DNA of 15,806 nt, taken from the IMG/VR virus record IMGVR_UViG_643348547_000009. One strand, given 5' to 3'. This document shows positions 1 to 14,361 of this stretch, piece after piece (position 1 is the stretch's first letter; every line of letters begins with the position of its first letter). Source of the DNA: a virus (Duplodnaviria > Heunggongvirae > Uroviricota > Caudoviricetes). Both the position numbers and the translations under genes were made by a program. The notes below the pieces were generated by a model, which was given only the letters and a program-made list of their open reading frames with translations, searched no databases and had not been told where the DNA came from.

Positions 1-1461
1 ATGAAAAAATTACTGCGTCTTTTTTTCCCGCTCTCGCTGCGGGTACGTTTTCTGTTGGCAACGGCAGCGGTAGTACTGGTGCTTTCGCTTGCCTACGGAA
101 TGGTCGCGCTGATCGGTTATAGCGTCAGTTTCGATAAAACTACGTTTCGGCTGTTACGTGGCGAGAGCAATCTGTTCTATACCCTTGCGAAGTGGGAAAA
201 CAATAAGTTGCATGTCGAGTTACCCGAAAATATCGACAAGCAAAGCCCCACCATGACGCTAATTTATGATGAGAACGGGCAGCTTTTATGGGCGCAACGT
301 GACGTGCCCTGGCTGATGAAGATGATCCAGCCTGACTGGCTGAAATCGAATGGTTTTCATGAAATTGAAGCGGATGTTAACGATACCAGCCTCTTGCTGA
401 GTGGAGATCATTCGATACAGCAACAGTTGCAGGAAGTGCGGGAAGATGATGACGACGCGGAGATGACCCACTCGGTAGCGGTAAACGTCTACCCGGCAAC
501 ATCGCGGATGCCAAAGTTAACCATTGTGGTGGTGGATACCATTCCGGTGGAGCTAAAAAGTTCCTATATGGTCTGGAGCTGGTTTATCTATGTGCTCTCA
601 GCCAATCTGCTGTTAGTGATCCCGCTGCTGTGGGTCGCCGCCTGGTGGAGTTTACGCCCCATCGAAGCCCTGGCAAAAGAAGTCCGCGAACTGGAAGAAC
701 ATAACCGCGAATTGCTCAATCCTGCCACAACGCGAGAACTGACCAGTCTGGTACGAAACCTGAACCGACTGTTAAAAAGTGAACGCGAACGTTACGACAA
801 ATATCGTACGACGCTCACCGACCTGACCCATAGTCTGAAAACGCCACTGGCGGTGCTGCAAAGTACGCTGCGTTCTCTGCGTAGTGAGAAGATGAGCGTC
901 AGTGATGCTGAGCCGGTAATGCTGGAGCAAATCAGCCGCATTTCACAGCAAATTGGCTACTACCTGCATCGTGCCAGTATGCGCGGCGGGACATTGCTTA
1001 GCCGCGAGCTGCATCCGGTCGCCCCACTGTTGGACAATCTCACCTCGGCGCTGAACAAAGTGTATCAACGCAAAGGGGTCAATATCTCTCTCGATATTTC
1101 GCCAGAGATCAGCTTTGTTGGTGAGCAGAACGATTTTGTCGAGGTGATGGGCAATGTGCTGGATAATGCCTGTAAATATTGCCTCGAGTTTGTCGAAATT
1201 TCTGCAAGGCAAACCGACGAGCATCTCTATATTGTGGTCGAGGATGATGGCCCCGGTATTCCATTAAGCAAGCGAGAGGTCATTTTCGACCGTGGTCAAC
1301 GGGTTGATACTTTACGCCCTGGGCAAGGTGTGGGGCTGGCGGTAGCCCGCGAAATCACCGAGCAATATGAGGGTAAAATCGTCGCCGGAGAGAGCATGCT
1401 GGGCGGTGCGCGGATGGAGGTGATTTTTGGTCGCCAGCATTCTGCGCCGAAAGATGAATAA
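1..1461 (+). CDS. phoQ: Sensor histidine kinase PhoQ of the PhoP/PhoQ two-component system, complete 486 aa
   Basis: ATG at 1, TAA at 1459-1461. Two hydrophobic TM segments flank a periplasmic domain with the acidic cluster EDDDDAEM; H-box [11 protein letters not shown]; ATP-binding G-boxes DDGPGI and GQGVGLAV. Sequence matches E. coli PhoQ as I remember it. Confidence 0.97.
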
Positions 1462-1584
1462 ATATGTCCTTTTATCACTATATCAAGACAAACCATTGAT
1501 TTAATTAAATAATCTTCACTGCAAAAAGTGCCAAAAATCGCAAATTGACTACACCATTAACTACACCGTTCGGTGCACCGTATG

Positions 1585-1610
1585 AAACAACGTGGAACAA
1601 ATAGACACAA
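1585..1610. repeat. Three direct hexamer repeats (AAACAA, GAACAA, ACACAA) at exact 10 bp spacing; shares the 15-mer AACAACGTGGAACAA with 8861-8875
   Basis: Read directly: tgAAACAAcgtgGAACAAatagACACAAgaa. The 15-mer at 1586-1600 is identical to 8861-8875, and the flanks also align with indels. Confidence 0.6.
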
Positions 1611-1755
1611 GAAATATACAGGCGGATCATCTTTCCAGGGGGAAGCGCACCAATTCATGAGGGGCGTTAATGTCTATATGGGGATCTCCACCTACCTGGA
1701 TTTTTTTCCGGTTAAACGTTAATCAGGCTGGTGGGTTTTACCTGTTCTGTAGGAG

Positions 1756-1770
1756 TGGTCATTATGACCA
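1756..1770. repeat. Perfect 15 bp palindrome TGGTCATTATGACCA, copy 1
   Basis: Read directly; a 17 bp exact direct repeat GTGGTCATTATGACCAT is shared with 1850-1866. Confidence 0.7.
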
Positions 1771-1850
1771 TCCCTTATATCGTCCGAATGCCGGACGAAG
1801 GCACACATCAACCGTAACGAAAATCGTTATGGTTGCCTTGATGGTCTGCG

Positions 1851-1865
1851 TGGTCATTATGACCA
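1851..1865. repeat. Perfect 15 bp palindrome TGGTCATTATGACCA, copy 2
   Basis: Read directly; lies 95 bp downstream of copy 1 in the island/host junction zone. Confidence 0.7.
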
Positions 1866-1898
1866 TTCAGCCAATGACCTTAATCAGAATTTTTCGCT

Positions 1899-1922
1899 AA
1901 AAAATGACGTTGGCCACGTCAT
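1899..1922 (-). terminator. Candidate rho-independent terminator ending the packaging operon
   Basis: On the minus strand, inverted repeat ATGACGT / ACGTCAT (1904-1910 and 1916-1922) with a 5 nt loop, followed by a T6 run (A-run 1899-1904 on plus). About 70 nt downstream of the stop of ORF 1993-2274. Confidence 0.45.
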
Positions 1923-1992
1923 CCGGAAAGCACAAAATCACGTCGATTTTTAATGGATGGTTAAACCGTCTTTATCTCGATGTCCGTACGTA

Positions 1993-2274
1993 TTACGTAC
2001 GCAGTCGTTCCGGCTTCTTCCAGTGGTACGTTATTTTCTCCTTCTCCCGATACATCTCCACGCGGCGACGGTAGGCCAGCAACTCAAGAACTCTGGTTCG
2101 TATGTTGCGCATATCCACGCCATTAAGCTGGATACCATCACGGCGCATCACCTCAGCAACAACACGCGCATAATTTTCGGCTGTCACGCTGTCCGGCTGC
2201 GTGGTCTGTTCGTCAGCCTGCTGGTTGATTCCAGAGACGCGGCGGATTAATCGCAGTATTTCGGCTTCTGTCAT
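1993..2274 (-). CDS. Hypothetical 93 aa protein, last gene of the packaging operon
   Basis: ATG at 2274 with a GAGG Shine-Dalgarno 8 nt upstream; starts 13 nt after the TerL stop; basic C-terminus. I do not recognise the family. Confidence 0.5.
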   Translation of the reverse strand: MTEAEILRLIRRVSGINQQADEQTTQPDSVTAENYARVVAEVMRRDGIQLNGVDMRNIRTRVLELLAYRRRVEMYREKEKITYHWKKPERLRT

Positions 2275-2287
2275 GCTGCTGACCTCA

Positions 2288-3949
2288 TTACACCCCGCTA
2301 AATTCTTCCAGTTTCTGGCGGTGGCTGTCGCTTATATCAAAAGCAAAATCCTCATGCTCTGCCTGAAATGTACCAAACGCCATCAGTGCCGCTACGCTCG
2401 GGTCTATCTTGTTCGGTGATTTTTTCTTGTTCGGCTTGATATTGGCGTTCGCGTCACTCTGCATCACGACGTTACTCATCGACCAGGACAACACCGGATC
2501 GCCACGATGCACAATCACCCTGCGGTTAACAAAAACTTCGAACGATTTCGCCGCCGGACTGAATCTGAGGTAGGTTTGCGGGAACGGCTCCACCTCAAAG
2601 CCTGCCCCCTGTAATTGCGTTCTCAGGTGCGTGGCGTTCCACGTATCGAAGCCCACCAACCTGATATTAAATTTCTCGGCGTCCTGCATGATGTCATCTC
2701 TGATCCGGTCGTAATCAATGCAGTCGCCAGGCGTTGTGCATATCCAGCCCGCTTTAGCCCACTGGCGATAGACAGCGCGATTTTTATTGGCTGGGTTCTG
2801 TAGCTGGAACTCCGGCAGATAATGACGGGAAACCAGCATGATATTTTTACCGACCGGAAAGGCATAGCATACGCTGGAAATATCGCTGGTTGATGATAAG
2901 TCCAGCCCCGCGTAACACTCCTGACCGTGTAAATCTTCCTCCGTGAACGTTCCGGTACACTCAGCCCATGCACCATTACCCATCCACGGGGTAGTCCCCT
3001 GACACCAGATATTAAATCGCTTTGTCATCATCTCCACCCACTGCGACGGAATACCCCGCGCTTTCTGGATGGTTGAGGCCAGTTTTTCACGATCGACGGA
3101 AACATCGATGTTAGGGTTAGCCTTTATCCACATCGCCGGATCATCAACCTCGTTTTCGTCGTCCAGTTCGTAAATCAGTACAAAAATTGAATCGTTGACC
3201 TCTTCGCCGTCCAGGATCTGGCAGCAATAATCATAGTGCTGCTTACAGGCTGAAACGACGTTACTGCCCGATGTGGTAATGGCAAATAACAGCCCTTCGG
3301 GACGTGCGCCCATCCCCAGCTCAAGCGCGGAATAAACGCCGTTATCGGGGTGTAGGTGGTATTCGTCCACGATAGAAAGACTGGGGTTTGTCCCCTCGAT
3401 GGTTGCTGCTTTTGCTGCCAGCGGCTTTAACAGGCTGTTGCTTTTCGGGTGTATCACCTTATGCGCCTGAATATTCACCCGCCTGCGTAACGGTCGGGAT
3501 AAAAGGCACATCTGACGCGCATCATCAAAGACGATCCGCGCCTGGTCACGGCTCACCGCTGCGGTGTAGATATCCTGCTGACCGTTCTCCATAATCAGAA
3601 ACCAGTTAGCCAGAATCGCGGCGGTCGTGGATTTCGCATTTTTGCGCGGCACTTCGATAAAGGCGCTCGTGTATTTGCGCCGTCCGGTGGCCTTAACCTT
3701 AAAGCCGAGGATGCACGCAAAGGCGAACTGCTGCCACGGCTCCAGCTCAATGGGTCTGCCACGCATCGGTCCTTTTACGTGCGGGCACACCCTGGAAAAG
3801 GCAATAAACCGCTCCACAACCTCACGATCGAACGTGTAAAGGGGGCTTTTAAGGTCCGAAAAGTACCGTTTAACAGCCTGTTTTAACCGTTTACAGGCCG
3901 GAATTTTGCCCGTTTTTACGTCTTCTGCGTACTTATTCCAGGCGGTCAA
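2288..3949 (-). CDS. Phage terminase large subunit (553 aa)
   Basis: Walker-A-like PRKNAKST in the N-terminal ATPase region and an acidic nuclease-type C-terminal half; follows TerS directly. Start is TTG at 3949 with a GAGGA Shine-Dalgarno 5 nt upstream and overlaps the TerS 3' end by 17 nt; there is no in-frame ATG nearby. Confidence 0.88.
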   Translation of the reverse strand: MTAWNKYAEDVKTGKIPACKRLKQAVKRYFSDLKSPLYTFDREVVERFIAFSRVCPHVKGPMRGRPIELEPWQQFAFACILGFKVKATGRRKYTSAFIEVPRKNAKSTTAAILANWFLIMENGQQDIYTAAVSRDQARIVFDDARQMCLLSRPLRRRVNIQAHKVIHPKSNSLLKPLAAKAATIEGTNPSLSIVDEYHLHPDNGVYSALELGMGARPEGLLFAITTSGSNVVSACKQHYDYCCQILDGEEVNDSIFVLIYELDDENEVDDPAMWIKANPNIDVSVDREKLASTIQKARGIPSQWVEMMTKRFNIWCQGTTPWMGNGAWAECTGTFTEEDLHGQECYAGLDLSSTSDISSVCYAFPVGKNIMLVSRHYLPEFQLQNPANKNRAVYRQWAKAGWICTTPGDCIDYDRIRDDIMQDAEKFNIRLVGFDTWNATHLRTQLQGAGFEVEPFPQTYLRFSPAAKSFEVFVNRRVIVHRGDPVLSWSMSNVVMQSDANANIKPNKKKSPNKIDPSVAALMAFGTFQAEHEDFAFDISDSHRQKLEEFSGV

Positions 3950-4289
3950 GCTCGTCCTCTTCTTCTGTTTCCGGTGGATTTTTACGGCGGCTTATCGGGT
4001 CAAAACCGAGCAAGGAGGCCATTTTTATCATCACTCTTTCAGCGTCGGATTTTGCGCTTAATGCGGGGTTTCTGCTCTCGCCGCCCTGACTGTTAACAAT
4101 GCTGAACCCGCGCGCCGCAAGGTCTGCAACGGCTTTCCGGTAAATGGAGTAGTTGACGCAATACAGTTCCAGATTGCTCCAGTCGGCGGGGGTCAGGTCT
4201 CCCCGTTCCGCAAGCTGCCGCGATTTTTCCCGCCACTGCTTCACGGCGATATCATCCAGGTAGGCGGGGGCTTTCGGTGGTCTTGCCAT
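3933..4289 (-). CDS. Phage terminase small subunit, P27-like (118 aa)
   Basis: Small protein immediately upstream of and overlapping TerL, with an acidic C-terminal tail (ETEEEDELDRLE). The sequence resembles P27-family TerS as I remember it. Confidence 0.75.
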   Translation of the reverse strand: MARPPKAPAYLDDIAVKQWREKSRQLAERGDLTPADWSNLELYCVNYSIYRKAVADLAARGFSIVNSQGGESRNPALSAKSDAERVMIKMASLLGFDPISRRKNPPETEEEDELDRLE

Positions 4290-4340
4290 GCTTATTTTTC
4301 GTCAGATTATTTTTCAAAAAATTCCCGTGCATAAAAATTT

Positions 4341-4400
4341 GGGGAGGCGGTCGGTGCCCGGCGGGGTCGGGTTTGTCCTGAAAACGCCCCCCACCCCGTC
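4341..4400. other. Candidate cos / packaging recognition site in the HNH-TerS intergenic region
   Basis: GC-rich tract ggggaggcggtcggtgcccggcggggtcgggtttgtcctgaaaacgccccccaccccgtc, with a G-rich left end and a C-rich right end in inverted symmetry, lying between HNH and TerS where HNH-dependent cos sites usually sit. The first 10 nt (GGGGAGGCGG) resemble the start of the P2-type cohesive end GGCGAGGCGG, which I recall from memory. Confidence 0.35.
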
Positions 4401-4577
4401 ATACAGCCTCATCAGCGATTGCGGAAACATTCCATAACCTCGCGGTCACGGTCGGTTAATCGCTTCGCTGTGATGCGTTCTGCGCGTCCTGACGCTTTAT
4501 CTTTATGCCCTGTTTCCTGTGTCTTCCATGCGTCACGCTGCCTTATAAGTCCACGGATAAGGCGGTTTTGTTCCCGC

Positions 4578-5018
4578 TCATTCATCAGCGTCATACATCC
4601 AGTTATTGCGGTTAGCGGCCCGTTCTTCCTCTTCACGAAATCCACCTGCGGCACGCTTGCTTTTTGTTGCCGGATCAAGCCATTTCGTTTTCTGGTTATG
4701 GCACGCCTGACACAATGGTTGATGGTTCCATTCGGGCCAGAAGAGAACATCATCACCGCCATCGATGGGGATAATGTGATCCACCACCACGGCGGGCGTA
4801 TATATCCCCTTCTCAAGGCATCGCACGCATAACGGGTTTTTACTCAGATACATGGCGCGGTATTTGTCCCACTGTCTGGAGTACCCACGCGCGCGGCGGT
4901 GTCCTCGTCTGGCATCCTCTGCACGCCATGCCGCCCGCCTGTGCTCCTCACACTTGCCGGACTTCACGCGCCTGTTACAGCCTGGTTCTGTGCATCGTCT
5001 TAATGGTTGCCACGGCAT
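4578..5018 (-). CDS. HNH endonuclease, phage packaging-associated (146 aa)
   Basis: HNH-type motifs CVRCLEKG, VDHIIPIDGG and CQACHNQK; sits directly upstream of TerS as in HK97-like HNH/terminase systems. ATG at 5018 overlaps the stop of the upstream gene (ATGA). Confidence 0.85.
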   Translation of the reverse strand: MPWQPLRRCTEPGCNRRVKSGKCEEHRRAAWRAEDARRGHRRARGYSRQWDKYRAMYLSKNPLCVRCLEKGIYTPAVVVDHIIPIDGGDDVLFWPEWNHQPLCQACHNQKTKWLDPATKSKRAAGGFREEEERAANRNNWMYDADE

Positions 5019-5314
5019 CAGTACACCCCCACATCACGATAAACCGACCAGAGCATCCCTACAGCCAGCGGGATTTCTTTTGTGTCTCCATCCCCGACCG
5101 TGGCCCTGTATTCGTACAGTTGCGACACGTACATCATGCAGCCAATCTTTATGGCTGGCGTGAACTCCAGCCCGTCATCAAAGCGCCTGCCGATGTGTTT
5201 CTGGCACACCTCAAGCGCGGCGGCGATGTATCCGCTGATTAACTGGTCTTCCTCATTGCCATCAATGCGGCAATGGAGTTTCACTTCTTCCAGGGTGATT
5301 AATTCTGCTGTCAT
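5018..5314 (-). CDS. Head-tail connector protein, gp6-like (98 aa)
   Basis: N-terminal LEEVKLHCRIDGNEEDQLISGYIAAA pattern typical of gp6-like connector proteins; start and stop overlap neighbours by ATGA. Confidence 0.7.
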   Translation of the reverse strand: MTAELITLEEVKLHCRIDGNEEDQLISGYIAAALEVCQKHIGRRFDDGLEFTPAIKIGCMMYVSQLYEYRATVGDGDTKEIPLAVGMLWSVYRDVGVY

Positions 5315-5649
5315 CGTGGCGCACCTGTTTTACAAAGAATTTCCAGACGAGTCCTTTTACCGTCGGGAACGGGGGGGCCAACAATATCAAGCTCATTGCC
5401 GGAATAAGCCCCCGTGAGTACCCGTATCCGGCTGGATGCCGTAACATCCACACGAAAACGGATCCAGACTCTTACGGTTGCCTGTGCCGTTTCTGCACCT
5501 GCGGTCATGCGTTCCCGTCCGCTGATCCCTTTCACCTCCGCCCATACGGTGGCAACATCCTCCCATGTGCTTTTCATTGCACCGGAAGGGAGGCGGGAAA
5601 GTTTCGCGCTCATGATGACAATGCGATCCCTCATGCTCCCCGCTCTCAT
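5311..5649 (-). CDS. Phage head closure / head-tail joining protein (112 aa)
   Basis: Size, position between portal and connector, and resemblance to the head closure protein family; ATGA overlap with the portal stop. Confidence 0.68.
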   Translation of the reverse strand: MRAGSMRDRIVIMSAKLSRLPSGAMKSTWEDVATVWAEVKGISGRERMTAGAETAQATVRVWIRFRVDVTASSRIRVLTGAYSGNELDIVGPPVPDGKRTRLEILCKTGAPR

Positions 5650-6860
5650 GATTTGCCCTCTTTATCATCCTTTACTTCGATCTCCTGTTTCCAGGCCTGG
5701 CTGAACTCATCGCCACCATCACGCGGCGATAATCCCTCACGTTCGCGGGCTTCGTTCGGGCACATAACGCCGGACTTGATGCCGCGTTCATAGGTGGCAA
5801 AGCGTTCGCCAGGTGTGGCCCGTAACAGATCCGCGCTGTCAAACTCCACCTGATACCGGATACCAGGTACAGGCGAGGCCACCAGCAAAGCATTTTTTAT
5901 CTGCTGCTCAAAGTTCGCCAGCCACGGGCGCATCGTCATGGTGAGAAATGCGCGGCTTGCCTCGCTGAAATTGCTGTAGGTGCTGTTGCTGTATTCCTGC
6001 AGAAAAATCGGCGAGACGTTGAACATTCGGGCGATGTCTTCAATGGTGAAGCGACGGGAGGCCAGCCATTCAGCATCCTGGTTACTCATGCCAAGCTGCT
6101 GATAGCTCATACCCCCTTCAAGAATGGGCGTTTTTCCGGCGTTTCTGGCTCCTTTGTAGCGTTCCAGTGCGGCTAATGCCTGTTTGCCCTTCACGCCGTC
6201 CAGCCATTCGCCTGACGTGATAACCCCTGCTGCCATCATGCCATCACGCATCACGCTCGCGCCGTGGCGCTGTTGGGCCAGCCCAAGCCCCAGCGATTCG
6301 CGGCAGATGGTCACAGGTGAGCGCCCCATAAAGCCGTCATCCGTGGAGTAACGAAGGTGGAGAACCTCCCACGGTAAATAGTTGCGGGTGTTTCCGCTGT
6401 AAGCGTCAGTGATGCGGTAACGCCAGTTATGTTCCCCTGTCTGCTCAACATTCACCGACTGCGGCGGGTAAGGGTGCAAAGCCACTGGAAAACCATCACG
6501 CCCCCACTGAATCACCGCATAAGCATTACCGTTTAACAGGCAGTGGCGGACCATCATTCGCTTAAACTGATAGGGCGTCTGCCACGCGTTCGGGCGCTCG
6601 TTGAGGATATGATCGACCGGATGAGAATCAAGCCACTCGCGGGCCTCCTTCCCCTTCTCATTGCGTACCAGGTACAGGTAGCATGGCATAGTAGCCACCG
6701 CCTCAGAGATGACCGTGACGGCGTTCATGACGGCGGGGAGTGATTCCGCTGTCCCCGATGATACGTACTCACCCGCCCCCGTGTTCGATGTGCCAGCCAG
6801 CGCCATAAATTCATCCAGCGTCATGCTGCGATGCTCTTGTTTTCGTCTGAAAGGCCACAT
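5646..6860 (-). CDS. Phage portal protein, HK97 family (404 aa)
   Basis: About 400 aa protein adjacent to the prohead protease with an acidic C-terminal tail; GGGGG Shine-Dalgarno about 6 nt upstream of the ATG at 6860. Confidence 0.88.
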   Translation of the reverse strand: MWPFRRKQEHRSMTLDEFMALAGTSNTGAGEYVSSGTAESLPAVMNAVTVISEAVATMPCYLYLVRNEKGKEAREWLDSHPVDHILNERPNAWQTPYQFKRMMVRHCLLNGNAYAVIQWGRDGFPVALHPYPPQSVNVEQTGEHNWRYRITDAYSGNTRNYLPWEVLHLRYSTDDGFMGRSPVTICRESLGLGLAQQRHGASVMRDGMMAAGVITSGEWLDGVKGKQALAALERYKGARNAGKTPILEGGMSYQQLGMSNQDAEWLASRRFTIEDIARMFNVSPIFLQEYSNSTYSNFSEASRAFLTMTMRPWLANFEQQIKNALLVASPVPGIRYQVEFDSADLLRATPGERFATYERGIKSGVMCPNEAREREGLSPRDGGDEFSQAWKQEIEVKDDKEGKS

Positions 6861-6861
6861 A

Positions 6862-7437
6862 TCACACCCCCGCTAAATCCGCCCACCAGCGGCGATTATC
6901 CGCGCGTGGCATTTTTTCGGGGTGCTGCTCATACAGGGAACGGCGGGCCAGATCCACGCCGGAATCAGGGTAAGCCGGTACGGATGTAACGGTAATTTCG
7001 TACAGTTCCGCCACCAGCACGGTGCGCACGCATGGATCTGTTGTGGTATCCCATACATCCTTACGGGAACGAAAGCCAAAGCTCATCCCCGAGATATCAC
7101 CACGCTTAACCAGTTCGATAACGTCCCGCCCTGTACTGGTATCCGGTGGGGTCAGTTCAAAGCGTAACCCTGTTTCATCCTCTTCCAGTTTCAGCGTACC
7201 GGAACGGGTACGCCCCAGTAACATGCTGTGGTCGTGCTCATACAGGCCGCGAACGTCATTACCCGCCGCCAGCCACTCACTGAACGCCCCCCGCTGGAAT
7301 TTTTCGTAAAACTCACCCCATAGCAGATCAGAAAGGTTATTCCAGCGAACAACGTAACCCGTCAGCGTACTGGCTCCGCTGGTGGTGATTTCTGATGACC
7401 GGATTTCCATGCTCTTTTTCATATTTTTTTCACCCAT
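6862..7437 (-). CDS. HK97-family prohead protease (191 aa; start may instead be the ATG at 7422)
   Basis: Conserved protease-family segments LYEHDHS, GRTRSGTL and GMSFGF. The ATG at 7437 has no good Shine-Dalgarno; the in-frame ATG at 7422 has GGTGA about 9 nt upstream. Confidence 0.85.
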   Translation of the reverse strand: MGEKNMKKSMEIRSSEITTSGASTLTGYVVRWNNLSDLLWGEFYEKFQRGAFSEWLAAGNDVRGLYEHDHSMLLGRTRSGTLKLEEDETGLRFELTPPDTSTGRDVIELVKRGDISGMSFGFRSRKDVWDTTTDPCVRTVLVAELYEITVTSVPAYPDSGVDLARRSLYEQHPEKMPRADNRRWWADLAGV

Positions 7438-7445
7438 AAAACACC

Positions 7446-7468
7446 AAAGGGGCTTTTTAGCCCCTTTT
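7446..7468 (-). terminator. Stem-loop plus U-rich tract between the capsid and protease genes (candidate attenuator)
   Basis: Inverted repeat AAAGGGGC / GCCCCTTT (8 bp stem, 6 nt loop) 4 nt after the capsid stop; on the minus strand it is followed by GGTGTTTT and then the protease ATG. Confidence 0.4.
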
Positions 7469-7472
7469 TCTG

Positions 7473-8645
7473 TTAACCGCCGTTTTTCATCTCGAGGACT
7501 TTTATCGCGCGGGAGTCAACAACCCCGCCGCCGATGTATTTGTCCGTGTGTACCTTGTAGAAACCCGGCTCTGTAATGTTGTCCGGTCGGGTACGAATAC
7601 CCGTTTCATGGTCAACGATGAAATAACCGCGCTTAAAGTCACCGACAGCCAGCGGCGTTTTGCCTTTGCCGATGTCCGGCATACTTTCCAGGTAATAAAC
7701 AGGACGGCCCAGCAATGTGTCAGGTGCGCCCTCTTTGAGGCTGTCACGCCATACGTAATCACCGCTCTGGTTTTTCAGCTTCTGCAATGCTGCCGCTGTG
7801 CTCGAGTTCATCACCCATACGGCGTTCTTACGGTATTTCGCTTTCAGCTTGTAGAGGATGTCGATCAGTTCGTCCGCTGTAATGGCGGCTTCGGCTGCTG
7901 CTACCATTTTTTCAATGGTGCCAAAGGCGCGGGTTTTGTCGTTGGTTAGATCTCGGTTGTAACTCAGGAAACCTTTCGGCTTGCCAGTACCATTACCATT
8001 TACAAAATCATCTTCTTCGGTCGTGGCGAACGTATCGGCGATTTCAGACGATAACCAGCCCAGTACGTCCACCTCTGAAAAATCCAGAATTTCCTGTGTG
8101 GTTTTCGGGTAGGCATAGATCGGGTTAAGTTTGATGCTTACGCGCTCAACTTTCGGGGTGTTGGTTTCGTTACGCTTGCTGCCCTCGGTTCCATAATTTA
8201 CAGCCGCGCCACCTGTGGAAACCAGTTTCTGATATTCGTTTGATTTCGCCGTTTTCACGGTCGCAATCATTCGCATGACGCTTTCATCACTCAGTAACCG
8301 CATGACCTCGCGATCAAGCTCAGGGATAACGGTATAGCCACCGTCCTTGCCGCTGTTGCTAGTGGTGGATAATGAGCGAACGTCACCCGTTACGATGTAA
8401 TTGCGAAGTTCTGCGGGGTCAGTGGTCTGGCTGGCTTTACCTGGCTTGCTGCGCTCTTCGTCTGCAATGGCTTCAAGGCGGGAAATGTCTTTATCGAGGG
8501 ATTCAGCTTTAGCGCGTAATTCGTCAAATTTTGCGCCCTCAGCATCGTTAAGACTGCGGTTTTCTTTTTCCGCGTTCTCCAGCATGTCGCGCATCTGATT
8601 TTTAATGGCGGTTTTCTGCTGGCGTAATTCGATTATTCTCGGCAT
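7473..8645 (-). CDS. Major capsid protein, HK97 fold (390 aa)
   Basis: N-terminal coiled-coil scaffold-like delta domain (ELRQQKTAIKNQMRDMLENAEKE...), about 390 aa, adjacent to the prohead protease; ATG at 8645. Confidence 0.92.
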   Translation of the reverse strand: MPRIIELRQQKTAIKNQMRDMLENAEKENRSLNDAEGAKFDELRAKAESLDKDISRLEAIADEERSKPGKASQTTDPAELRNYIVTGDVRSLSTTSNSGKDGGYTVIPELDREVMRLLSDESVMRMIATVKTAKSNEYQKLVSTGGAAVNYGTEGSKRNETNTPKVERVSIKLNPIYAYPKTTQEILDFSEVDVLGWLSSEIADTFATTEEDDFVNGNGTGKPKGFLSYNRDLTNDKTRAFGTIEKMVAAAEAAITADELIDILYKLKAKYRKNAVWVMNSSTAAALQKLKNQSGDYVWRDSLKEGAPDTLLGRPVYYLESMPDIGKGKTPLAVGDFKRGYFIVDHETGIRTRPDNITEPGFYKVHTDKYIGGGVVDSRAIKVLEMKNGG

Positions 8646-8682
8646 AAAAAAAGTCCTGGGGTTAAGTAAGGAACTCCAGGAC
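8646..8682 (-). promoter_or_regulatory. Terminator-like hairpin plus T7 tract directly abutting the capsid start codon
   Basis: Minus strand reads GTCCTGG-(16 nt loop)-CCAGGAC-TTTTTTT-ATG. The only Shine-Dalgarno candidate (AGGA) is inside the 3' arm of the stem. Confidence 0.4.
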
Positions 8683-8859
8683 GCGGCAAAAACTCAACCG
8701 TTTTTCATAAGGAAATCAGCAATCGCACCGATCGTTTTCCCGCCTGGTAATGAATATTGGCGAGAACATTAACAGGCGGAAAAGTGGCCCCAGCGTCCTG
8801 GCACCACGGGCGAGAATAATCATGATTCAGTTCGGGTAAAATATGCCGATCCGGTCAGC

Positions 8860-8885
8860 GAACAACGTGGAACAACCACGAACAA
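8860..8885. repeat. Three GAACAA direct repeats at exact 10 bp spacing in the packaging-operon upstream region
   Basis: Read directly: cGAACAAcgtgGAACAAccacGAACAAataa; shares a 15-mer with 1586-1600. Confidence 0.6.
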
Positions 8886-8904
8886 ATAATTTACAAAACA
8901 TGAC

Positions 8905-8925
8905 AAAAAGCCGGATTGCTCCGGC
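8905..8925 (-). terminator. Candidate rho-independent terminator after the perC-like gene
   Basis: On the minus strand, GCCGGA-gcaa-TCCGGC (6 bp stem, tetraloop) followed by TTTTTGTCATGTTTTG, starting 7 nt after the perC-like stop. Confidence 0.5.
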
Positions 8926-8932
8926 TGTGTGA

Positions 8933-9205
8933 TTATCTGTCCTGGTAATTTCGCCATATTTCATCACCAGCACCATCCATACCCATTTCGGCATAAGTGC
9001 GATCGACCGCCTTTTTCAGGTCTCCGTAATTATCCGGCGGCTCCGGTGGCCTCTGTGCCTTCCTGGAACATTCCAGCCGTCGCATCGTGATGTGATGCCG
9101 TTCCTTGTCTGTCTCCACCAGTTGCATGACTTCACCCCATCGCGCCGACGCTCTCCGGTAAAAGCCTTTCGCCTCCAGTTCTTCCGCTATGCGGTCATGT
9201 ACCAT
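8933..9205 (-). CDS. PerC-family transcriptional regulator-like protein (90 aa)
   Basis: N-terminal pattern MVHDRIAEELEAKGFYRRASARW matches my recollection of PerC-family proteins; strong Shine-Dalgarno (GAGGGGGG); last gene before the head module. Confidence 0.55.
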   Translation of the reverse strand: MVHDRIAEELEAKGFYRRASARWGEVMQLVETDKERHHITMRRLECSRKAQRPPEPPDNYGDLKKAVDRTYAEMGMDGAGDEIWRNYQDR

Positions 9206-9214
9206 CGCCCCCCC

Positions 9215-9625
9215 TCAGAACGGAATATCATCACCGTAAGGGTCATCGCCTCCCGCTGGTGGCTGATTACCCTGTGTGCCTGTGGTCTTGCGTCGGCTCC
9301 CACCAGGTCGCGCCGTTCTGGCACTGATTACGCTGTCTGCAATAACCTGCCAGCCCTGCCGCGTTTCGCCGTTCTGGCCTGTCCACTGGCTTACCTGCAT
9401 GTTACCCGCCACGCTCACCAGCTCGCCTTTGTGGTGTTTTGCCAGTGCGTCGGCCTGTCTGCCAAACGCCAGGACGGATAACCACATCGTCGCCTGTCCG
9501 TCATCTGCCTGATTGCACGGCAGGGGGACCGCCATGCTTGCCATAGCCATTTGTGTGCCCTTGCTGGTGGTCTTTAACTGCGGGTCAGCCACCAGCCGCC
9601 CGTAAGCGGCTATCTGTGCTGTCAT
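9215..9625 (-). CDS. ssb: Single-stranded DNA-binding protein (136 aa)
   Basis: OB-fold-like N-terminal region alignable with E. coli SSB, a Gly/Pro/Gln-rich linker, and the acidic C-terminal tip DDIPF. Confidence 0.8.
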   Translation of the reverse strand: MTAQIAAYGRLVADPQLKTTSKGTQMAMASMAVPLPCNQADDGQATMWLSVLAFGRQADALAKHHKGELVSVAGNMQVSQWTGQNGETRQGWQVIADSVISARTARPGGSRRKTTGTQGNQPPAGGDDPYGDDIPF

Positions 9626-9879
9626 GATTCCACCTCTCCGGTTTTAACGTTGATGGTTGTTACCTGTTCCGCTTCGGCAATCTCCCGTTCCGTCAGCGTG
9701 GCAAAGTTTGCCGCCGCCGTGGTCATGAATGCGCTTATCAGGTCGGGATGTGCTTTCGCGTATCCTTCCCCCGTGTTGCGGTCGATGATTTTTATCGCCA
9801 CTCTCAGCCAGTGCTCTGTAAGGTCAATGGCGCGGTTATGCTGCTTCTTCTGATTATTAAGTTTTCCTGATGTGCGCAT
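9622..9879 (-). CDS. Hypothetical 85 aa protein between the ori and ssb
   Basis: ATG at 9879 with a GAGGGGG Shine-Dalgarno upstream; stop overlaps the ssb start (ATGA). Function unknown. Confidence 0.5.
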   Translation of the reverse strand: MRTSGKLNNQKKQHNRAIDLTEHWLRVAIKIIDRNTGEGYAKAHPDLISAFMTTAAANFATLTEREIAEAEQVTTINVKTGEVES

Positions 9880-9928
9880 TTTTATTTTTACCCCCTCGTT
9901 TAAAAAGTTTTGAGTTGTGCCTCCCCTT

Positions 9929-10167: not shown

Positions 10168-11916
10168 TTATAAAAACGCGTCGCAATCGTCTGTTGTTAT
10201 TGCGTTAGTCTGCGTTACTCCCTTAACTTTCCGCGTAATATATTCATGTCCGTAAACTTTCGCGGCTGGCTTCATAGCCTTGCCAAAGTCATTTACGTTT
10301 AGCGGTTTGCTCCTGCCTGCGTATGCCATAAACGCCAGATAGACGCGGTAAAGGCTGTTTCTGGTCGTGTACTTCACTGAATCGCCACCGCCACCCATCA
10401 TCAGGCCGCGCGCTTCCTCCAGAAAATTCAGGAACTGGCAAAACTCAATAACCGGATCCGTCTGTTGCTTTATTGCCAGTGCTTCATCACCGTCACGCTG
10501 TTCCAGTAGTAAAGCCCGTGCCTTCTCAGGGTCGGTAAAGTTCGCCAGCAAGCGGCGGATAATGACAGGGATTTCAGCCGCGATCTTTTCCGGTAGCTCC
10601 CTGTCTTTTTCTGCCTCGCTTACGATATTGTCGAAGCGGAAAATAACCCGACGACGTGACACGCCTCCGGCCCGTTCGGTGAATATCATCGGGTTGTTAT
10701 TGGTCGCCAGCACCACCGCCCTGATTACCGTAGTGAAACGCTTTTCATATTTCGGGTTGATTTCCACGGGGTCGCCGCCCGTGATTTTCTTGATGCCCGT
10801 GCCTTCGCCTGTATATTTCGGCTGGTCTGCCAGGACGATAAGACGACTCCCGACAACCTGCGCACGCCCACCAGCATCATCAAGCGATGTCATTTCCGCG
10901 CTTACCGTGTTTTGTTTCCCCGCTAAAAGGCTGGCGATGTGGGTGAATGTACTTTTGCCGCTCCCGCCGTCTCCGGTGGCCTCAATAAACATCTGCCAGT
11001 CGTACCGGTTCGCCATAATCATGTACAGCGCGGCACATATACGCATCATCTTGCGCGAGTCTTTTCCGGCTGCGTGCTCAAGCCATTTATGAAAGTTTGG
11101 CGCGTTATCGCGGATGTTCTCCCCTGGTGCTGGTGGCGTGTACTCAATGCCGTTGTTCGTGGTGATCCAGTTCTCCGGCGTGTGCGGGGAAAATTCCCCC
11201 GTTTTCAGGTCAAGCGCACCATTGGCGAACGGCAGCAAATCGCCGGACGGCTCGCCCATTGGTTCGGCAATAACTTTTAACGCTTCCACGGCGTTATTGA
11301 TTACGCGCTTGCTGAAAGTGGCCCTGTGCTCTGAATAGATCGCCACCATTTCGCGGCTAAGTTCCATTGTGCTGACCGGACACCATACCCCGCCGCGCCA
11401 TACGTGAACGATTTCACTTTCCGGATGCACACAAACGCCATCAAATCGACCAGCAAGCATCTGTGCGCGCTCACTGTCTGCCATTTGTGCCAGTTGCGTA
11501 TTTTTCTGCTCCGGCATGGTAAGCCCTGCGGCAATATTTTCACGCTCAGCATTCAGATAGCGCCGCCAGTTTTCACACTTCTGGACGTGCATTCCTTCGG
11601 GGTAAAAATTTGCGTCCTGAATATCTGCCGCCGCCAGCTTCTGACCAATCTTTTTGGTCTCCACCAAATCCAGTTCTCCGGCCTGGTACAGCCTTACGCG
11701 TTTTTTTCCATCCGGAACAATTTTCAGTGCATCAAGTTCGGCAAGCTGATTTGGCCCAAGCCACACAGGCGGCACATTATCGCCGGATGCGGGGCCATCC
11801 TGCTCCTGCCATTGTTTCGCGTGCGACCAGGCATCACTACCCGCGAAAATAATTACCTCTGTGTCTTTGTGTTTTATTCCGCGTGGCTGTTTTTTTACGT
11901 TCGGTGCCAGTTTCAT
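10168..11916 (-). CDS. Phage/plasmid primase-helicase, P4 family (582 aa)
   Basis: Walker A motif GDGGSGKST in the C-terminal NTPase domain and a primase-like N-terminal half; ATG at 11916 with an AGGGG Shine-Dalgarno; followed by the iteron region. Confidence 0.88.
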   Translation of the reverse strand: MKLAPNVKKQPRGIKHKDTEVIIFAGSDAWSHAKQWQEQDGPASGDNVPPVWLGPNQLAELDALKIVPDGKKRVRLYQAGELDLVETKKIGQKLAAADIQDANFYPEGMHVQKCENWRRYLNAERENIAAGLTMPEQKNTQLAQMADSERAQMLAGRFDGVCVHPESEIVHVWRGGVWCPVSTMELSREMVAIYSEHRATFSKRVINNAVEALKVIAEPMGEPSGDLLPFANGALDLKTGEFSPHTPENWITTNNGIEYTPPAPGENIRDNAPNFHKWLEHAAGKDSRKMMRICAALYMIMANRYDWQMFIEATGDGGSGKSTFTHIASLLAGKQNTVSAEMTSLDDAGGRAQVVGSRLIVLADQPKYTGEGTGIKKITGGDPVEINPKYEKRFTTVIRAVVLATNNNPMIFTERAGGVSRRRVIFRFDNIVSEAEKDRELPEKIAAEIPVIIRRLLANFTDPEKARALLLEQRDGDEALAIKQQTDPVIEFCQFLNFLEEARGLMMGGGGDSVKYTTRNSLYRVYLAFMAYAGRSKPLNVNDFGKAMKPAAKVYGHEYITRKVKGVTQTNAITTDDCDAFL

Positions 11917-12212
11917 TTTTTACCCCTGAATACGTTAAGCATCTTTTTTATTTCCTGAATATTGGCGCGTGCTTTCTCCCTGCTGGTGGGCACGTTACGC
12001 GGTACGGCCTGCACCAGAGAAAAATCACGATCGAACTGATAAACAGGCATCACGCAATCATATTCGTAGCCTTCACGACGGTAGGTTACGCGCCGTTCCT
12101 CCACGCCCTTAATCATTACCATGCCGCCATATTTATCGCGGTAAATATCGCCGTTCATAAATTCAGGACGAGCGGGGCCGCTGGCAGTAACGCCAGAATT
12201 TTTATTTTTCAT
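11913..12212 (-). CDS. Small hypothetical protein (99 aa), possibly DUF4222-like (tentative)
   Basis: ATG at 12212; stop overlaps the primase start (ATGA). The RDKYGGMVMIKGVEERRVTYRREGYEYDCVMP segment resembles small proteins I recall upstream of P4-family primases. Confidence 0.5.
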   Translation of the reverse strand: MKNKNSGVTASGPARPEFMNGDIYRDKYGGMVMIKGVEERRVTYRREGYEYDCVMPVYQFDRDFSLVQAVPRNVPTSREKARANIQEIKKMLNVFRGKK

Positions 12213-12217
12213 GTTTT

Positions 12218-12445
12218 TTATTCTCCGGTGTGCTGCGCTTTATTATTCTCGTGAATTGCCATCACTGTATTTAATTCATTAATAACAGGCGTTAATAGCG
12301 TACGCACGGCAGAAAACATCATTGAATCAGATTCATCGCCACTTTCCGGCACATCAATTAACTTAAGTAGTAATGCGTCCATTTCCTTTGCGCGGATTAA
12401 TGCGTTTTCAGAATGAACAAGAACATCAAAGGGTATTTTATGCAT
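12218..12445 (-). CDS. Hypothetical 75 aa protein
   Basis: ATG at 12445 preceded by AGGGGGGGA; start overlaps the last codons of the upstream Icd-like ORF (ATGCATAA). The longer 109 aa reading in the ORF track has no Shine-Dalgarno. Confidence 0.5.
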   Translation of the reverse strand: MHKIPFDVLVHSENALIRAKEMDALLLKLIDVPESGDESDSMMFSAVRTLLTPVINELNTVMAIHENNKAQHTGE

Positions 12446-12902
12446 GACTCCCCCCCTGGCGAATACGGGCGACAAAAATAAGATGTGCGTGCGGCAGCTG
12501 TGCACGTGCTTCGCGCTCAGTGGCAGCGGTAACGGTGAATATTGCAATACTGTCTGTCAGGCACTGCATAAAGCGCCAGACAAAATAAGGGCGTGCGAAT
12601 ACAGCCATGTGAAAGGCTCCCAGATGAATTTTAAGGAGTCTCGCTACTACGCTGCTAAACATGGTGGCGAGACGTAACAGGGTTAGCAGACTGGTCATCT
12701 GGAAACCAGCGAGCACAAAGGCTCCCCCGTTACGCCCCGCCATAATGCGGGTATGGGTAGGTTTACGGACACAAAAAAACCGCTTATCGGATGTGGGCGG
12801 CTGTCCGCCAGATGTATTCAGGCTGCTAAACCCGGTCGCCATGTGGGCGACGGGGGAAGCATACAGCCCCGTGATAATTTTTTGCAAGCGGTTTTTACGC
12901 AT
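12438..12902 (-). CDS. Icd-like (P4 cell-division-inhibitor family) domain protein, copy 1; full ORF is 154 aa, and an internal start at 12608 would give 56 aa
   Basis: C-terminal WRF...ATEREARAQ...FVARIRQGGSHA is paralogous to the C-terminus of copy 2. The ATG at 12902 has an AGGGG Shine-Dalgarno and overlaps the copy 2 stop; the ATG at 12608 has a GGGAG Shine-Dalgarno. Confidence 0.45.
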   Translation of the reverse strand: MRKNRLQKIITGLYASPVAHMATGFSSLNTSGGQPPTSDKRFFCVRKPTHTRIMAGRNGGAFVLAGFQMTSLLTLLRLATMFSSVVARLLKIHLGAFHMAVFARPYFVWRFMQCLTDSIAIFTVTAATEREARAQLPHAHLIFVARIRQGGSHA

Positions 12903-13098
12903 GATGTGACCCCTGACGAATACGGGCGGCGAATACCATCACGCAGCCAGCCGGGGATTGCTGGCGTGCCTCCTGTTCGCTGGTGGCCTCAATGGTAATC
13001 ACGCGCGGTTGTGCCGTGCTCAGGGCGATAAAACGCCAGATGTATTTATTCAGGTTGTGCGAATCCCGCCCTTGCGGGTGTGTGGTATGATTTAACAT
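12895..13098 (-). CDS. Icd-like small protein, copy 2 (67 aa)
   Basis: ATG at 13098 with GAGG 5 nt upstream; ...KYIWRF...ATSEQEARQQ...FAARIRQGSHHA. The long upstream in-frame extension (353 aa ORF) is Cys/Arg-rich and antisense to plus-strand genes, so it is treated as non-coding. Confidence 0.5.
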   Translation of the reverse strand: MLNHTTHPQGRDSHNLNKYIWRFIALSTAQPRVITIEATSEQEARQQSPAGCVMVFAARIRQGSHHA

Positions 13099-13192
13099 AG
13101 CTACCTCGATACTTTCGCTATCGTTGGTGGTTAGAAGCCCCGTTACTGCTCCTACAGTGCGGGGTTTCGTCGTTTCTACACCTTGCCTTAAT

Positions 13193-13249
13193 AAGGTGTT
13201 GAACACCAATTTAAATCGAGGTGTTAAACACGTCAAGTGTTGAACACTT
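13193..13249. promoter_or_regulatory. Three palindromic operator-like sites GTGTT-N-AACAC in the divergent control region
   Basis: GGTGTTgAACACC at 13195-13207, GTGTTaAACAC at 13221-13231, and the perfect 15 bp site AAGTGTTgAACACTT at 13235-13249; centres are spaced 25 and 16 bp apart. Confidence 0.55.
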
Positions 13250-13268
13250 ATTTTTTTTCCTGCATACT
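13240..13268 (+). promoter_or_regulatory. Candidate sigma70 promoter for the plus-strand RHH gene, overlapping operator 3
   Basis: TTGAAC at 13240-13245, a 17 bp spacer containing a T8 run, and CATACT at 13263-13268, about 30 nt upstream of the ATG at 13298. Confidence 0.3.
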
Positions 13269-13297
13269 GCATTTGTTTTTTATGAAGGGTGCTCAAC

Positions 13298-13477
13298 ATG
13301 GCGACAAAAGCAGTAAACGCAAAATCACAAACAGTTGCGGCAAGGGTTCCACATGAAGTTATGAACAATGTTGAGGCGGTAAAAATGCCCGGCGAAAGTA
13401 CAGGGCAGTTTGTTACAGCTGCATTAAAGCGGGAAGTTGAATACCGCCAGCGTCGCAAGGCCAAAGAATCAGAATAA
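13298..13477 (+). CDS. Small ribbon-helix-helix-like DNA-binding protein (59 aa), candidate island regulator
   Basis: ATG at 13298 (the ORF track starts at an upstream GTG at 13289); AAGGG 9 nt upstream. The pattern ARVPHEVMNNVEAV...GESTGQFVTAALKREV fits a beta-strand, helix, helix (Arc/CopG-like) layout. Confidence 0.5.
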   Translation: MATKAVNAKSQTVAARVPHEVMNNVEAVKMPGESTGQFVTAALKREVEYRQRRKAKESE

Positions 13478-13534
13478 TCACTATCAGCGCCGTGGCGTGA
13501 GGTACTCCGGCGCATTGCTTTACAGGTCAGTACT

Positions 13535-13744
13535 ATGAGCAAAAAACACCGATCAGCAGATGAGATTTTTGCAGAACAACGAAGATTGCTTTTGCAAAGT
13601 ATCATTTCACGCCAGCAAGAGAAGGCGCGAGCTAAACAAATGCCACCAAATACAGAACCAGCGCCTACAAGATTTGCGCTTGATGACTTTCTCGATAAAC
13701 ACCCCAGGGTAATGAAAGCAAACAAAAACCGCCCACCAGGCTGA
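13535..13744 (+). CDS. Hypothetical 69 aa basic protein, second gene of the plus-strand module
   Basis: ATG at 13535 with a weak Shine-Dalgarno; co-directional with the RHH gene and followed by a strong terminator; no family recognised. Confidence 0.35.
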   Translation: MSKKHRSADEIFAEQRRLLLQSIISRQQEKARAKQMPPNTEPAPTRFALDDFLDKHPRVMKANKNRPPG

Positions 13745-13839
13745 TCACATTGCCCACCAGCCTGATAGCGGCTATCATCCCCGTGCTTATGTTTGAGATC
13801 ACACACACAAACGGCGCAGCGGGTTATCTGTTCAGAAAG

Positions 13840-13870
13840 GCGGCTCCATTTCGGGGCCGCTTTTTTTATT
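13840..13870 (+). terminator. Rho-independent terminator of the plus-strand module
   Basis: GCGGCTCC-atttc-GGGGCCGC (8 bp stem with one G-U pair) followed by TTTTTTTATT. Confidence 0.6.
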
Positions 13871-14013
13871 CCTGAAAAACCCCAATTTTGTTGTTTTTCA
13901 GTTTCACCAGGGCGAACGAATCCCCGCCCACGTTCTGGCGTATATTCAATCTTCATGGTTATAGCTCTGTGTTCAGATGATTGATGTGTGGCGGCTGCGT
14001 GCCGCCAGCGTGA

Positions 14014-14202
14014 TTAATGAACTGCCTTGCAGCTATCCTTCCAGGCCAGAACCTCGGATAAAGACCAGCCAACGGAACGACCGCCAAGTTTACGACGTGA
14101 TGGGAATTGTCCGGCCTTTTCCAGGCGGTAGCGACACGTACGGCTAAGGCCGGTTAGTTTTTCGCATTCTTTTTCACGTATAAACCGATCAGTGCTTAAC
14201 AC
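14014..14202 (-). CDS. alpA: AlpA-family phage transcriptional regulator (62 aa)
   Basis: HTH segment LTGLSRTCRYRLEKAGQFPSRRKLGGRSVGWSLSEVLAW typical of the AlpA family; GTG start at 14202 with an AAGGGGG Shine-Dalgarno 5 nt upstream; immediately downstream of int. Confidence 0.8.
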   Translation of the reverse strand: MLSTDRFIREKECEKLTGLSRTCRYRLEKAGQFPSRRKLGGRSVGWSLSEVLAWKDSCKAVH

Positions 14203-14361
14203 TATTGCCCCCTTTCGTTTCTTAAAGAGTTATTTCGTGTTCTATTGCGTTGGGATGTGTCTGATTGTGTCAGGATGATTCAGAGTTGGCAAATGTTGAG
14301 GCCGTATGGTTTACAGAAAGAGGAATAATCAGGATAAAATCATTTAATTTCATGTTAATAC

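Follow-up and report, generated by a model that had tools for sequence, protein, structure and literature searches.

The closest described relatives of the locus reported here are the immI region of phages P1 and P7 and the eta, CI and kil genes of P4. In P1, the record annotation lists promoters, the sites a1 and b1, the c4 gene, the sites a2 and b2 with b2 on the ribosome-binding site of icd, and the genes icd and ant. The b2 site is given there as the target through which C4 RNA represses translation of icd and ant, and Icd is described as 'apparently required for expression of ant'. Mageeney et al. 2023 (PMC10111431) outline the P4 mechanism and also report that the Rfam C4 and isrK profiles match several Gram-negative phage-inducible chromosomal islands (PICIs) in the 'Bro zone', which they read by analogy with P4 eta, CI and kil. 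The C4 and c4-a1b1 RNA motifs were already known (PMC2864571). Cell-division inhibition or killing on expression is known only for P1 Icd (from its annotation), for P4 Kil (from PMC10111431) and for a homologue from an ECOR61 prophage. Here we describe a related locus in a 15,806-nucleotide stretch of viral DNA (Caudoviricetes; IMG/VR record IMGVR_UViG_643348547_000009), referred to below as the window. Two Icd-like genes, U and D, lie on its minus strand on either side of a C4-type antisense RNA gene. Sequence comparison indicates that the locus is a stacked variant of the known P1/P4 immunity switch, not a simple gene duplication.

Both genes belong to the NCBIfam family NF033153 (phage_ICD_like, cut-off 25 bits), U with 69.8 bits (E 1.5e-19) and D with 53.7 bits (E 1.6e-14); the reference members P4 Kil and P1 Icd score 76.1 and 52.6 bits. 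The four proteins can be aligned, with invariant columns P8, F23, A38, E41, A44, R45, A58 and R59, and U and D have in common with P1 Icd and P4 Kil the conserved core W/F-R/V-F ... A-T-E-x-E-A-R ... A-R. The U and D proteins are 41-43% identical over 48-49 residues, and their BLOSUM62 local score of 103 was reached by none of 2000 shuffles. An original prediction, made from the DNA letters, of two paralogous Icd-like genes at these positions is thus borne out, both copies being on the minus strand, as is the membership of the Icd-like family that it proposed. Its claim of clear DNA homology between the two copies holds for the last 39 nucleotides, where 30 of 39 positions match and the local score of the block was reached by none of 1000 shuffles. 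Within this block lie the codons for ARIRQG, the G-rich Shine-Dalgarno sequence that serves the following gene, and the overlap of stop and start. The claim fails for the genes as a whole, where the codon-aligned identity is 51.7% and third positions are saturated (18/49).

For comparison, loci were gathered from viral contigs, 31 related to the 154-codon open frame that ends with D and 80 related to U, to which were added nine loci from other genera (single-protein search, one genome per species) and several annotated regions from E. coli, P1 and P4; individual loci are given below by their L numbers. Both U and D are under purifying selection. The ratio of nonsynonymous to synonymous polymorphism (pN/pS) is 0.21 over 47 distinct alleles of U, with 17, 16 and 38 variable sites at first, second and third codon positions, and 0.34 over 22 distinct alleles of D, with 13, 12 and 24. 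All 47 of these window-type alleles of U are intact, and so are all 22 of D as far as ARIRQG, the only defects of D being G-run frameshifts at the 3' end in three loci; neither copy is a pseudogene. Start codons, Shine-Dalgarno sequences (for U, GAGG 5 nucleotides before the ATG) and coupling junctions are all kept among relatives. The run of seven G residues at the 3' end of D (12448-12458, minus strand) gives orf75, the gene that follows, its Shine-Dalgarno sequence. The length of the run differs in L018 and L062, where D is fused in frame to orf75; in L027, D is frameshifted. These changes could reflect slippage or sequencing error. Residues 17-24 of D (12530-12560) form a hypervariable patch in an otherwise conserved protein, with the four alleles LTDSIAIF, HHSSIDIY, QEKQTSLF and HGKNIRLH, which could result from mosaic recombination or diversifying selection. 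Structure prediction of the proteins gave no functional lead.

The stretch between the two genes is occupied by the C4 RNA gene, its leader and two sets of target sites, to which the loop b' and the tail a' of C4 are complementary (Table 1). The site a1 lies within a c4-a1b1 leader motif and b1 lies just 3' of that Rfam match. An isrK-like match (36.8 bits, E 8e-6, under the gathering score of 50) overlaps the same motif and ends in a terminator-like hairpin, which recurs in the predicted fold of the leader (z = -3.66) and has an equivalent element in P1. Positions 12650-12839 share 75-79% DNA identity with the c4 region of P1 and P7. The second pair of sites follows C4, and b2 ends in GGAG, which is the Shine-Dalgarno sequence of D, 8 nucleotides before its ATG. 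A predicted internal sigma-70 promoter hardly varies among 29 leaders; its candidate start falls where the isrK-like match begins. By analogy it would correspond to PLE of P4 and P51 of P1. The P4 layout is alike, with TTGCCT-18-TATAGT just upstream of the start of its isrK match and the ATG of eta upstream of both. A permissive Rfam search of positions 12150-14300 found no RNA match upstream of U, not even a degenerate second C4, and no C4 target sites were found at the ribosome-binding site of U. A CATCTGG inside U (13042..13036), which matches b1, was considered as a possible C4 target and rejected: relatives such as L004 have it in the same form although their b alleles differ, and it therefore reflects Ile-Trp codons.

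The pairing between C4 and its targets leaves a clear mark on sequence variation. Among 29 distinct U-C4-D regions, with 25 different leaders between them, variation in the leader is all but confined to three coordinated hot spots. The sites a1, a' and a2 occur as two alleles, AG/CT/AG or GA/TC/GA, and b1, b' and b2 as seven. The C4 loops and both sets of targets always change together, giving 13 combinations, or specificity types. The predicted duplexes follow the same rule: b' with b1 has a mean of -9.8 kcal/mol for cognate and -4.1 kcal/mol for non-cognate partners, b' with b2 has -13.5 against -5.1 kcal/mol, and a' with a1 or a2 has -7.9 against about -3 kcal/mol. In every allele, b2 abuts GGAG. 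Such co-variation is the expected signature of an antisense immunity RNA that masks the ribosome-binding site of D, as in P1 and P7. The matched changes of C4 and targets, together with the placing of b2 on the D Shine-Dalgarno sequence, argue for D as a C4-gated gene, and position and sequence alike identify it as the homologue of P1 icd and P4 kil. The series of at least 13 specificities, built from two a alleles and seven b alleles, amounts to a natural set of compensatory mutations for the study of RNA-RNA specificity and of exclusion between satellites. It also points to use of the antisense immunity switch of P1 and P4 by E. coli chromosomal islands that form capsids.

The whole of this RNA region lies inside an open frame. 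The 98 N-terminal codons of the 154-codon frame cover the internal promoter, a1 and b1, the hairpin, C4, a2 and b2, and then run into D in frame. The original prediction had described a 154-residue protein formed by in-frame fusion of D to an upstream open reading frame (ORF); the frame itself is real, but the fused codons overlie the C4 RNA gene and its target sites, which that prediction had missed, and show no sign of coding constraint. From the ATG of the frame to the ATG of D there are 294 nucleotides with no in-frame stop in 28 of the 29 leaders, while the other frames over the same stretch hold 1-8 stops (4-8 in all but one leader). In this joining stretch pN/pS is about 1.0 and the variable sites are spread evenly over codon positions (42/45/42). 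These values come from unaligned sequences of equal length in which internal -1/+1 indels inflate the absolute figures, so that what can be used is the ratio, about 1, and the even spread over codon positions. Where alleles have been replaced, -1/+1 indels come with them, in three configurations whose net shift is zero in each case. In the L041-L045 group, a stretch of some 37 codons that takes in half of C4 is read in another frame, which is nevertheless open. The 98 joining codons are thus conserved only as an open frame and not as a protein.

Read-through frames of this kind recur elsewhere. Upstream of kil, 152 codons are open across the C4-type RNA of P4, and 125 are open in L007; over the upstream C4 of L036, L038 and L045, the open frames measure 409, 156 and 143 codons. 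The ATG of the 154-codon frame (12902) lies 51 nucleotides upstream of the predicted transcript start at 12851. No Pfam domain was found in the products of the 154-codon or the 353-codon frame, the latter being the longer open frame that ends with U. The RefSeq annotation of near-identical E. coli genomes, made with the NCBI Prokaryotic Genome Annotation Pipeline (PGAP), nonetheless labels both U and the 154-residue ORF (WP_001230911.1) 'Icd-like'. An annotation correction follows from the above: the '154-aa Icd-like protein' is for the most part an RNA gene read as protein.

A comparable case may exist in P4, where the Pfam family Phage_ASH matches residues 37-161 of the eta frame with 82 bits (L003, 4172-4813). 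The matched stretch encodes the P4 isrK/seqA and CI (C4) RNAs, and therefore part of the Phage_ASH family may consist of translated conserved RNA genes. PHROG families of Icd/Kil proteins carry the label 'transcriptional repressor', which is probably a legacy of the old annotation of the P4 cI ORF. This label and the P4 'Ash' match alike coincide with the historic cI ORF or with the region of the RNA genes.

U and D are each joined to what follows in the same manner. Both end in ATGCRTAA, whose ATG opens the next ORF. This overlap of stop and start, which the original prediction had pointed out, is real and conserved, but it is a property of the family: of the 81 distinct 3' junctions of Icd-like genes, 76 have the next start overlapping the stop (48 at -5, 23 at -8 and 5 at -1), among them kil/epsilon of P4 (GTGCGTAA, -5) and icd/ant of P1 (ATGA). 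Together with the annotated need for P1 Icd in the expression of ant, this frequency suggests that ATGCRTAA is the translational-coupling joint of the family, acting by termination and re-initiation.

It is likely, with a probability that we put at about 0.65, that the region is the immunity and leader segment of an early (replication) operon with two icd/kil-type gates in series, working as in P1 and P4. Work on P1 and P4 by Biere, Citron and Schuster in 1992 and by Forti and colleagues in 1999 is said to form part of the basis for such a mechanism. The internal promoter would be constitutive and, from a start near 12851, would give untranslated leader transcripts that supply C4. Pairing of C4 at a2 and b2 would block translation of D; since D is coupled to orf75, the DUF4222 gene and the primase gene, this block would silence the replication genes, and transcription would probably end prematurely. 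Transcripts from the operator-flanked promoter before U, or from an alpA promoter, would be translated. Ribosomes finishing U would re-initiate at the overlapping ATG of ATGCGTAA and would read across the internal promoter, a1/b1, the hairpin, C4 and a2/b2 into the D frame. Such read-through would bypass the masked ribosome-binding site of D and would guard the RNA from termination, in the way of P4 Eta on PLL transcripts.

Several points weigh against this proposal. The transcript start, the processing of C4, the efficiency of coupling and the dependence on Rho are all taken over by analogy, and the internal promoter scores 8/12, under the scanner threshold of 9/12. In L040, a deletion of one nucleotide breaks the 154-codon frame. 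The 29 leaders are close relatives, and therefore the statement that the frame is kept open rests on few independent events. If the U promoter were the main one, all transcripts would be translated through C4, and accumulation of C4 would then need a real internal promoter. Finally, the model gives U a coupling role only; U has a pN/pS of 0.21, and therefore its protein must do something.

The frame of U is open for 305 codons upstream of U, from the alpA stop at 14014, and measures 353 residues from its first ATG. It runs antisense through the YlcI/YnfO gene (13289-13477, plus strand), a 69-residue ORF (13535-13744, plus strand) and the operator region, and its composition is junk-like. In 72 distinct alpA-to-Icd intervals (398-2110 nucleotides, several genera), the Icd frame stays free of stops over a median of 268.5 codons, as against 1 and 7 in the other frames, and it reaches the alpA stop in 29 of them. 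In the near-identical E. coli AR_0013, PGAP calls a partial 'Icd-like' pseudogene lacking the C-terminus at the equivalent of 13731-13953 (minus strand), which is the N-terminal part of the 353-codon frame. A promoter-like site precedes U in a region divergent from the YlcI/YnfO gene, and three GTGTTYAACAC palindromes bracket it. The motif has seven matches in the window, six of them being the three palindromes read on both strands, a number reached by none of 200 shuffles. The palindromes are probably the operators of some repressor, and U is the first gene downstream of this divergent promoter/operator region.

These frames lend themselves to a more tentative idea, which is possible but which we hold to be somewhat improbable. 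The 353-codon and then the 154-codon frame could form a relay of content-free frames ending in Icd cores, whose sole selected function would be to hold ribosomes on transcripts begun upstream, over the entire distance between alpA and the replication genes. The Icd cores (WRF...ARIRQG and the joint) would double as recombination handles for gaining, losing and stacking immunity-RNA cassettes of differing specificity.

The origin of the pair has been read as a tandem duplication followed by divergence, a view that the comparison with relatives contradicts. D is 53% identical to P1 Icd and 62% identical to the C4-linked Icd-like gene of L007, and only 43% identical to U; U is 60% identical to single-copy Icd-like genes of Enterobacter and other genera. 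The best PHROG family of D, phrog_1426, is also the best family for P1 Icd and differs from that of U. Over 128 sources, the architectures found were Icd only (87), Icd-C4-Icd (34), C4-Icd (4) and C4-Icd-C4-Icd (3). The U segment is present in about 1800 of 5426 complete E. coli genomes (about a third) and the a1b1-C4-D cassette in 119. Single-gene chimeras with the 5' part of U and the 3' part of D, and no C4, occur in L005 (2042-2242), L046, L047 and the protein P0111. Their crossovers fall at two points at least, near WRF and near EQEAR, and recurrent recombination between U and D therefore appears to have taken place. Moreover, L036, L038 and L045 (about 2640-3620) carry two full modules in tandem, isrK-C4-Icd and then a1b1-C4-Icd, with two C4 RNAs of different loops, each with its own matching targets, and one open frame of up to 409 codons. 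The identities, the PHROG split, the chimeras and the tandem loci point to two lineages juxtaposed by recombination and not to local duplication. The pair is best seen as the outcome of recombination between satellite lineages, with exchange in the conserved core of the Icd genes and at the joint that ends them. This suggests that immunity cassettes may move between satellites through recombination within small Icd genes, with tandem copies and chimeras as by-products.

Other explanations of the pair have to be weighed against the gated-operon proposal. U and D could be two diverged effectors, cell-division inhibitors or killers, aimed at different host or helper-phage targets, so that the tandem diversifies host manipulation or abortive infection. 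This is compatible with regulation by C4 and accords with purifying selection on both copies (0.21 and 0.34) at only 43% identity, with the hypervariable patch of D, and with the annotation of P1 Icd as a cell-division inhibitor and the role of P4 Kil in cell killing given in PMC10111431. Most sources, however, have one copy only (87 of 128), U alone is found in far more genomes than U with D, and natural chimeras collapse the pair to a single gene. Diversification of this kind seems unlikely, and a tandem pair by itself is no evidence of functional diversification; the U and D proteins are still of interest as possible toxic effectors.

It is far less probable that the 154-residue ORF is a genuine two-domain protein, with an N-terminal domain and an Icd domain, in which the overlap with C4 is incidental. 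PGAP does call the protein, P4 Eta is really translated according to PMC10111431, and the P4 eta frame does have its Phage_ASH match. The window product, however, is without a Pfam match. In its N-terminal part pN/pS is about 1, variable sites favour no codon position, about 37 of the codons lie in a different frame in the L041-L045 group, and conservation tracks the RNA elements and the pairing of C4 with its targets. Least credible of all is that one copy is a decaying relic of duplication or recombination, devoid of its own function. The rarity of the pair relative to single copies, and the G-run frameshifts that fuse or truncate D in L018, L062 and L027, would fit such decay. Against it stand the intact U of 47 alleles and D of 22 (to ARIRQG), the excess of variable sites at third codon positions in both genes, and the conserved starts, Shine-Dalgarno sequences and junctions.

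All the relevant genes lie on the minus strand, in the order alpA, the 353-codon frame ending in U, the 154-codon frame ending in D, orf75, DUF4222 and primase (Table 1). No Ant homologue was found downstream of D in profile and PHROG searches, the coupled gene being orf75, followed by DUF4222 and the primase. The candidate homology of orf75 to P4 epsilon was rejected (BLASTP E 0.3 against P4 epsilon). The satellite setting assumed by the original prediction is upheld by profile matches to integrase, AlpA, primase, SSB, PerC, capsid, protease, portal and large terminase. Over positions 1-9900 the island encodes a major capsid protein, a prohead protease, a portal protein and a large terminase of its own, along with SSB and PerC, and it looks like a capsid-forming satellite. 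The phoQ gene adjoins the island at the edge of the window, and the other flank in E. coli AR_0013 is roxA. The capsid, protease, portal, terminase, SSB and PerC genes and the phoQ edge indicate, by gene content, that the element is a capsid-encoding PICI, a phage satellite, of E. coli. The Rfam int-alpA RNA (RF02996, 50-63 bits) occurs near the integrase/alpA end of the related islands L008, L016 and L066; it was not detected in the window at the Rfam gathering threshold.

Table 1. Features of the locus in window coordinates, in the direction of transcription
Feature	Position	Strand	Basis or remark
AlpA/Vis-family regulator gene	14202..14014	-	PF05930, 61.8 bits; head of the chain
353-codon open frame ending with U	13956..12895	-	ORF list
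Promoter-like site for U, TTGACG (13236..13231), 17 nt, TAAATT (13213..13208)	13247..13196	-	scan
Icd-like gene U, 67 aa	13098..12895	-	NF033153
U-stop/154-frame-start junction, ATGCGTAA	12902..12895	-	-5 overlap
154-codon open frame (Eta-like) ending with D	12902..12438	-	ORF list
Predicted internal sigma-70 promoter, TTGCAA-18 nt-TATGCT	12887..12858	-	read from sequence; predicted transcript start about 12851
c4-a1b1 leader motif	12864..12815	-	Rfam RF03163, 45.5 bits, E 9e-10; 1.2 bits under gathering score 46.7
Target a1, TTTAGCAG	12830..12823		within c4-a1b1 motif
Target b1, CATCTGG	12814..12808
Terminator-like hairpin and T7 run between b1 and C4	12803..12773	-	3' end of isrK-like Rfam match
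C4-type antisense (immunity) RNA gene	12747..12660	-	Rfam RF01695, 72.7 bits, E 7.5e-13; full-length model match
C4 loop b', CCAGATGA	12702..12695
C4 single-stranded tail a', CTGCTAA	12689..12683
Target a2, TTTAGCAG	12659..12652
Target b2, TCATCTGGGAG	12627..12617
Icd-like gene D, 56 aa	12608..12438	-	NF033153
D-stop/orf75-start junction, ATGCATAA	12445..12438	-	overlap; after G7 run
orf75, translationally coupled to D	12445..12218	-	phrog_2196, function unknown
DUF4222 protein gene	12212..11913	-	downstream operon cargo
P4-family primase gene	11916..10168	-	downstream operon cargo; stop/start overlap with DUF4222 gene

Much of what the locus contains is already known: the C4 and c4-a1b1 motifs, P1 immI, P4 eta/kil/CI and the C4 and isrK matches in PICIs have been described, and PGAP labels both genes. 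The window is an island of the Gram-negative kind treated in PMC10111431. Neither in the passages of that survey nor in the other literature checked did we find a description of a second Icd-like gate stacked upstream of a C4 cassette, of a combinatorial two-by-seven allele series with triple co-variation, of U/D chimeras or of read-through frames without amino-acid constraint. At the isrK-orf45-anrP locus of Gifsy-1 (PMC4825925) the point of likeness is the leader, which here has an isrK-like match ending in a terminator hairpin, but under the gathering score. Full isrK matches upstream of C4 are found in P4 and in the tandem loci L036, L038 and L045.

The likeness to immI of P1 and P7 is close. 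The C4 RNA belongs to the same Rfam family within a region of high DNA identity, the order a1 b1, C4, a2 b2 is the same, and b2 lies on the Shine-Dalgarno sequence of an Icd-family ORF in both. The Icd stop of P1 overlaps the next start, as here, and D has P1 Icd as a near relative at 53% identity. The heteroimmunity of P1 and P7, reportedly described by Citron and Schuster in 1990, is paralleled by the loop specificity alleles of the present series. However, P1 has ant where this locus has orf75, DUF4222 and primase as cargo, no open frame crosses its c4 (11 codons are open upstream of icd, as against the 154-codon frame), and no second Icd-like gene stands upstream of a1/b1 in the place taken here by U.

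The CI RNA of P4 belongs to the C4 family (74.9 bits) and its Kil to the Icd-like family, as do C4 and D here. The eta frame starts upstream of the internal promoter PLE, crosses the RNA gene and ends as Kil; the 154-codon frame likewise crosses C4 and ends as D, its ATG lying upstream of the predicted promoter. Both loci have an AlpA/Vis gene upstream and a P4-family primase downstream, and the -5 overlap of kil and epsilon has its counterpart at the junctions of the window. The two differ in other respects. The leader here is of the P1-like a1b1 type, the isrK/seqA model reaching only 36.8 bits against a gathering score of 50, and orf75 is unrelated to P4 epsilon. The eta ATG overlaps the vis stop, whereas the C4-bearing frame of the window is coupled to U and it is the 353-codon frame that abuts the alpA stop; that upstream frame also has the YlcI/YnfO gene and the operators antisense within it. 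The window, moreover, has two nested-gene units in series, of 353 and 154 codons.

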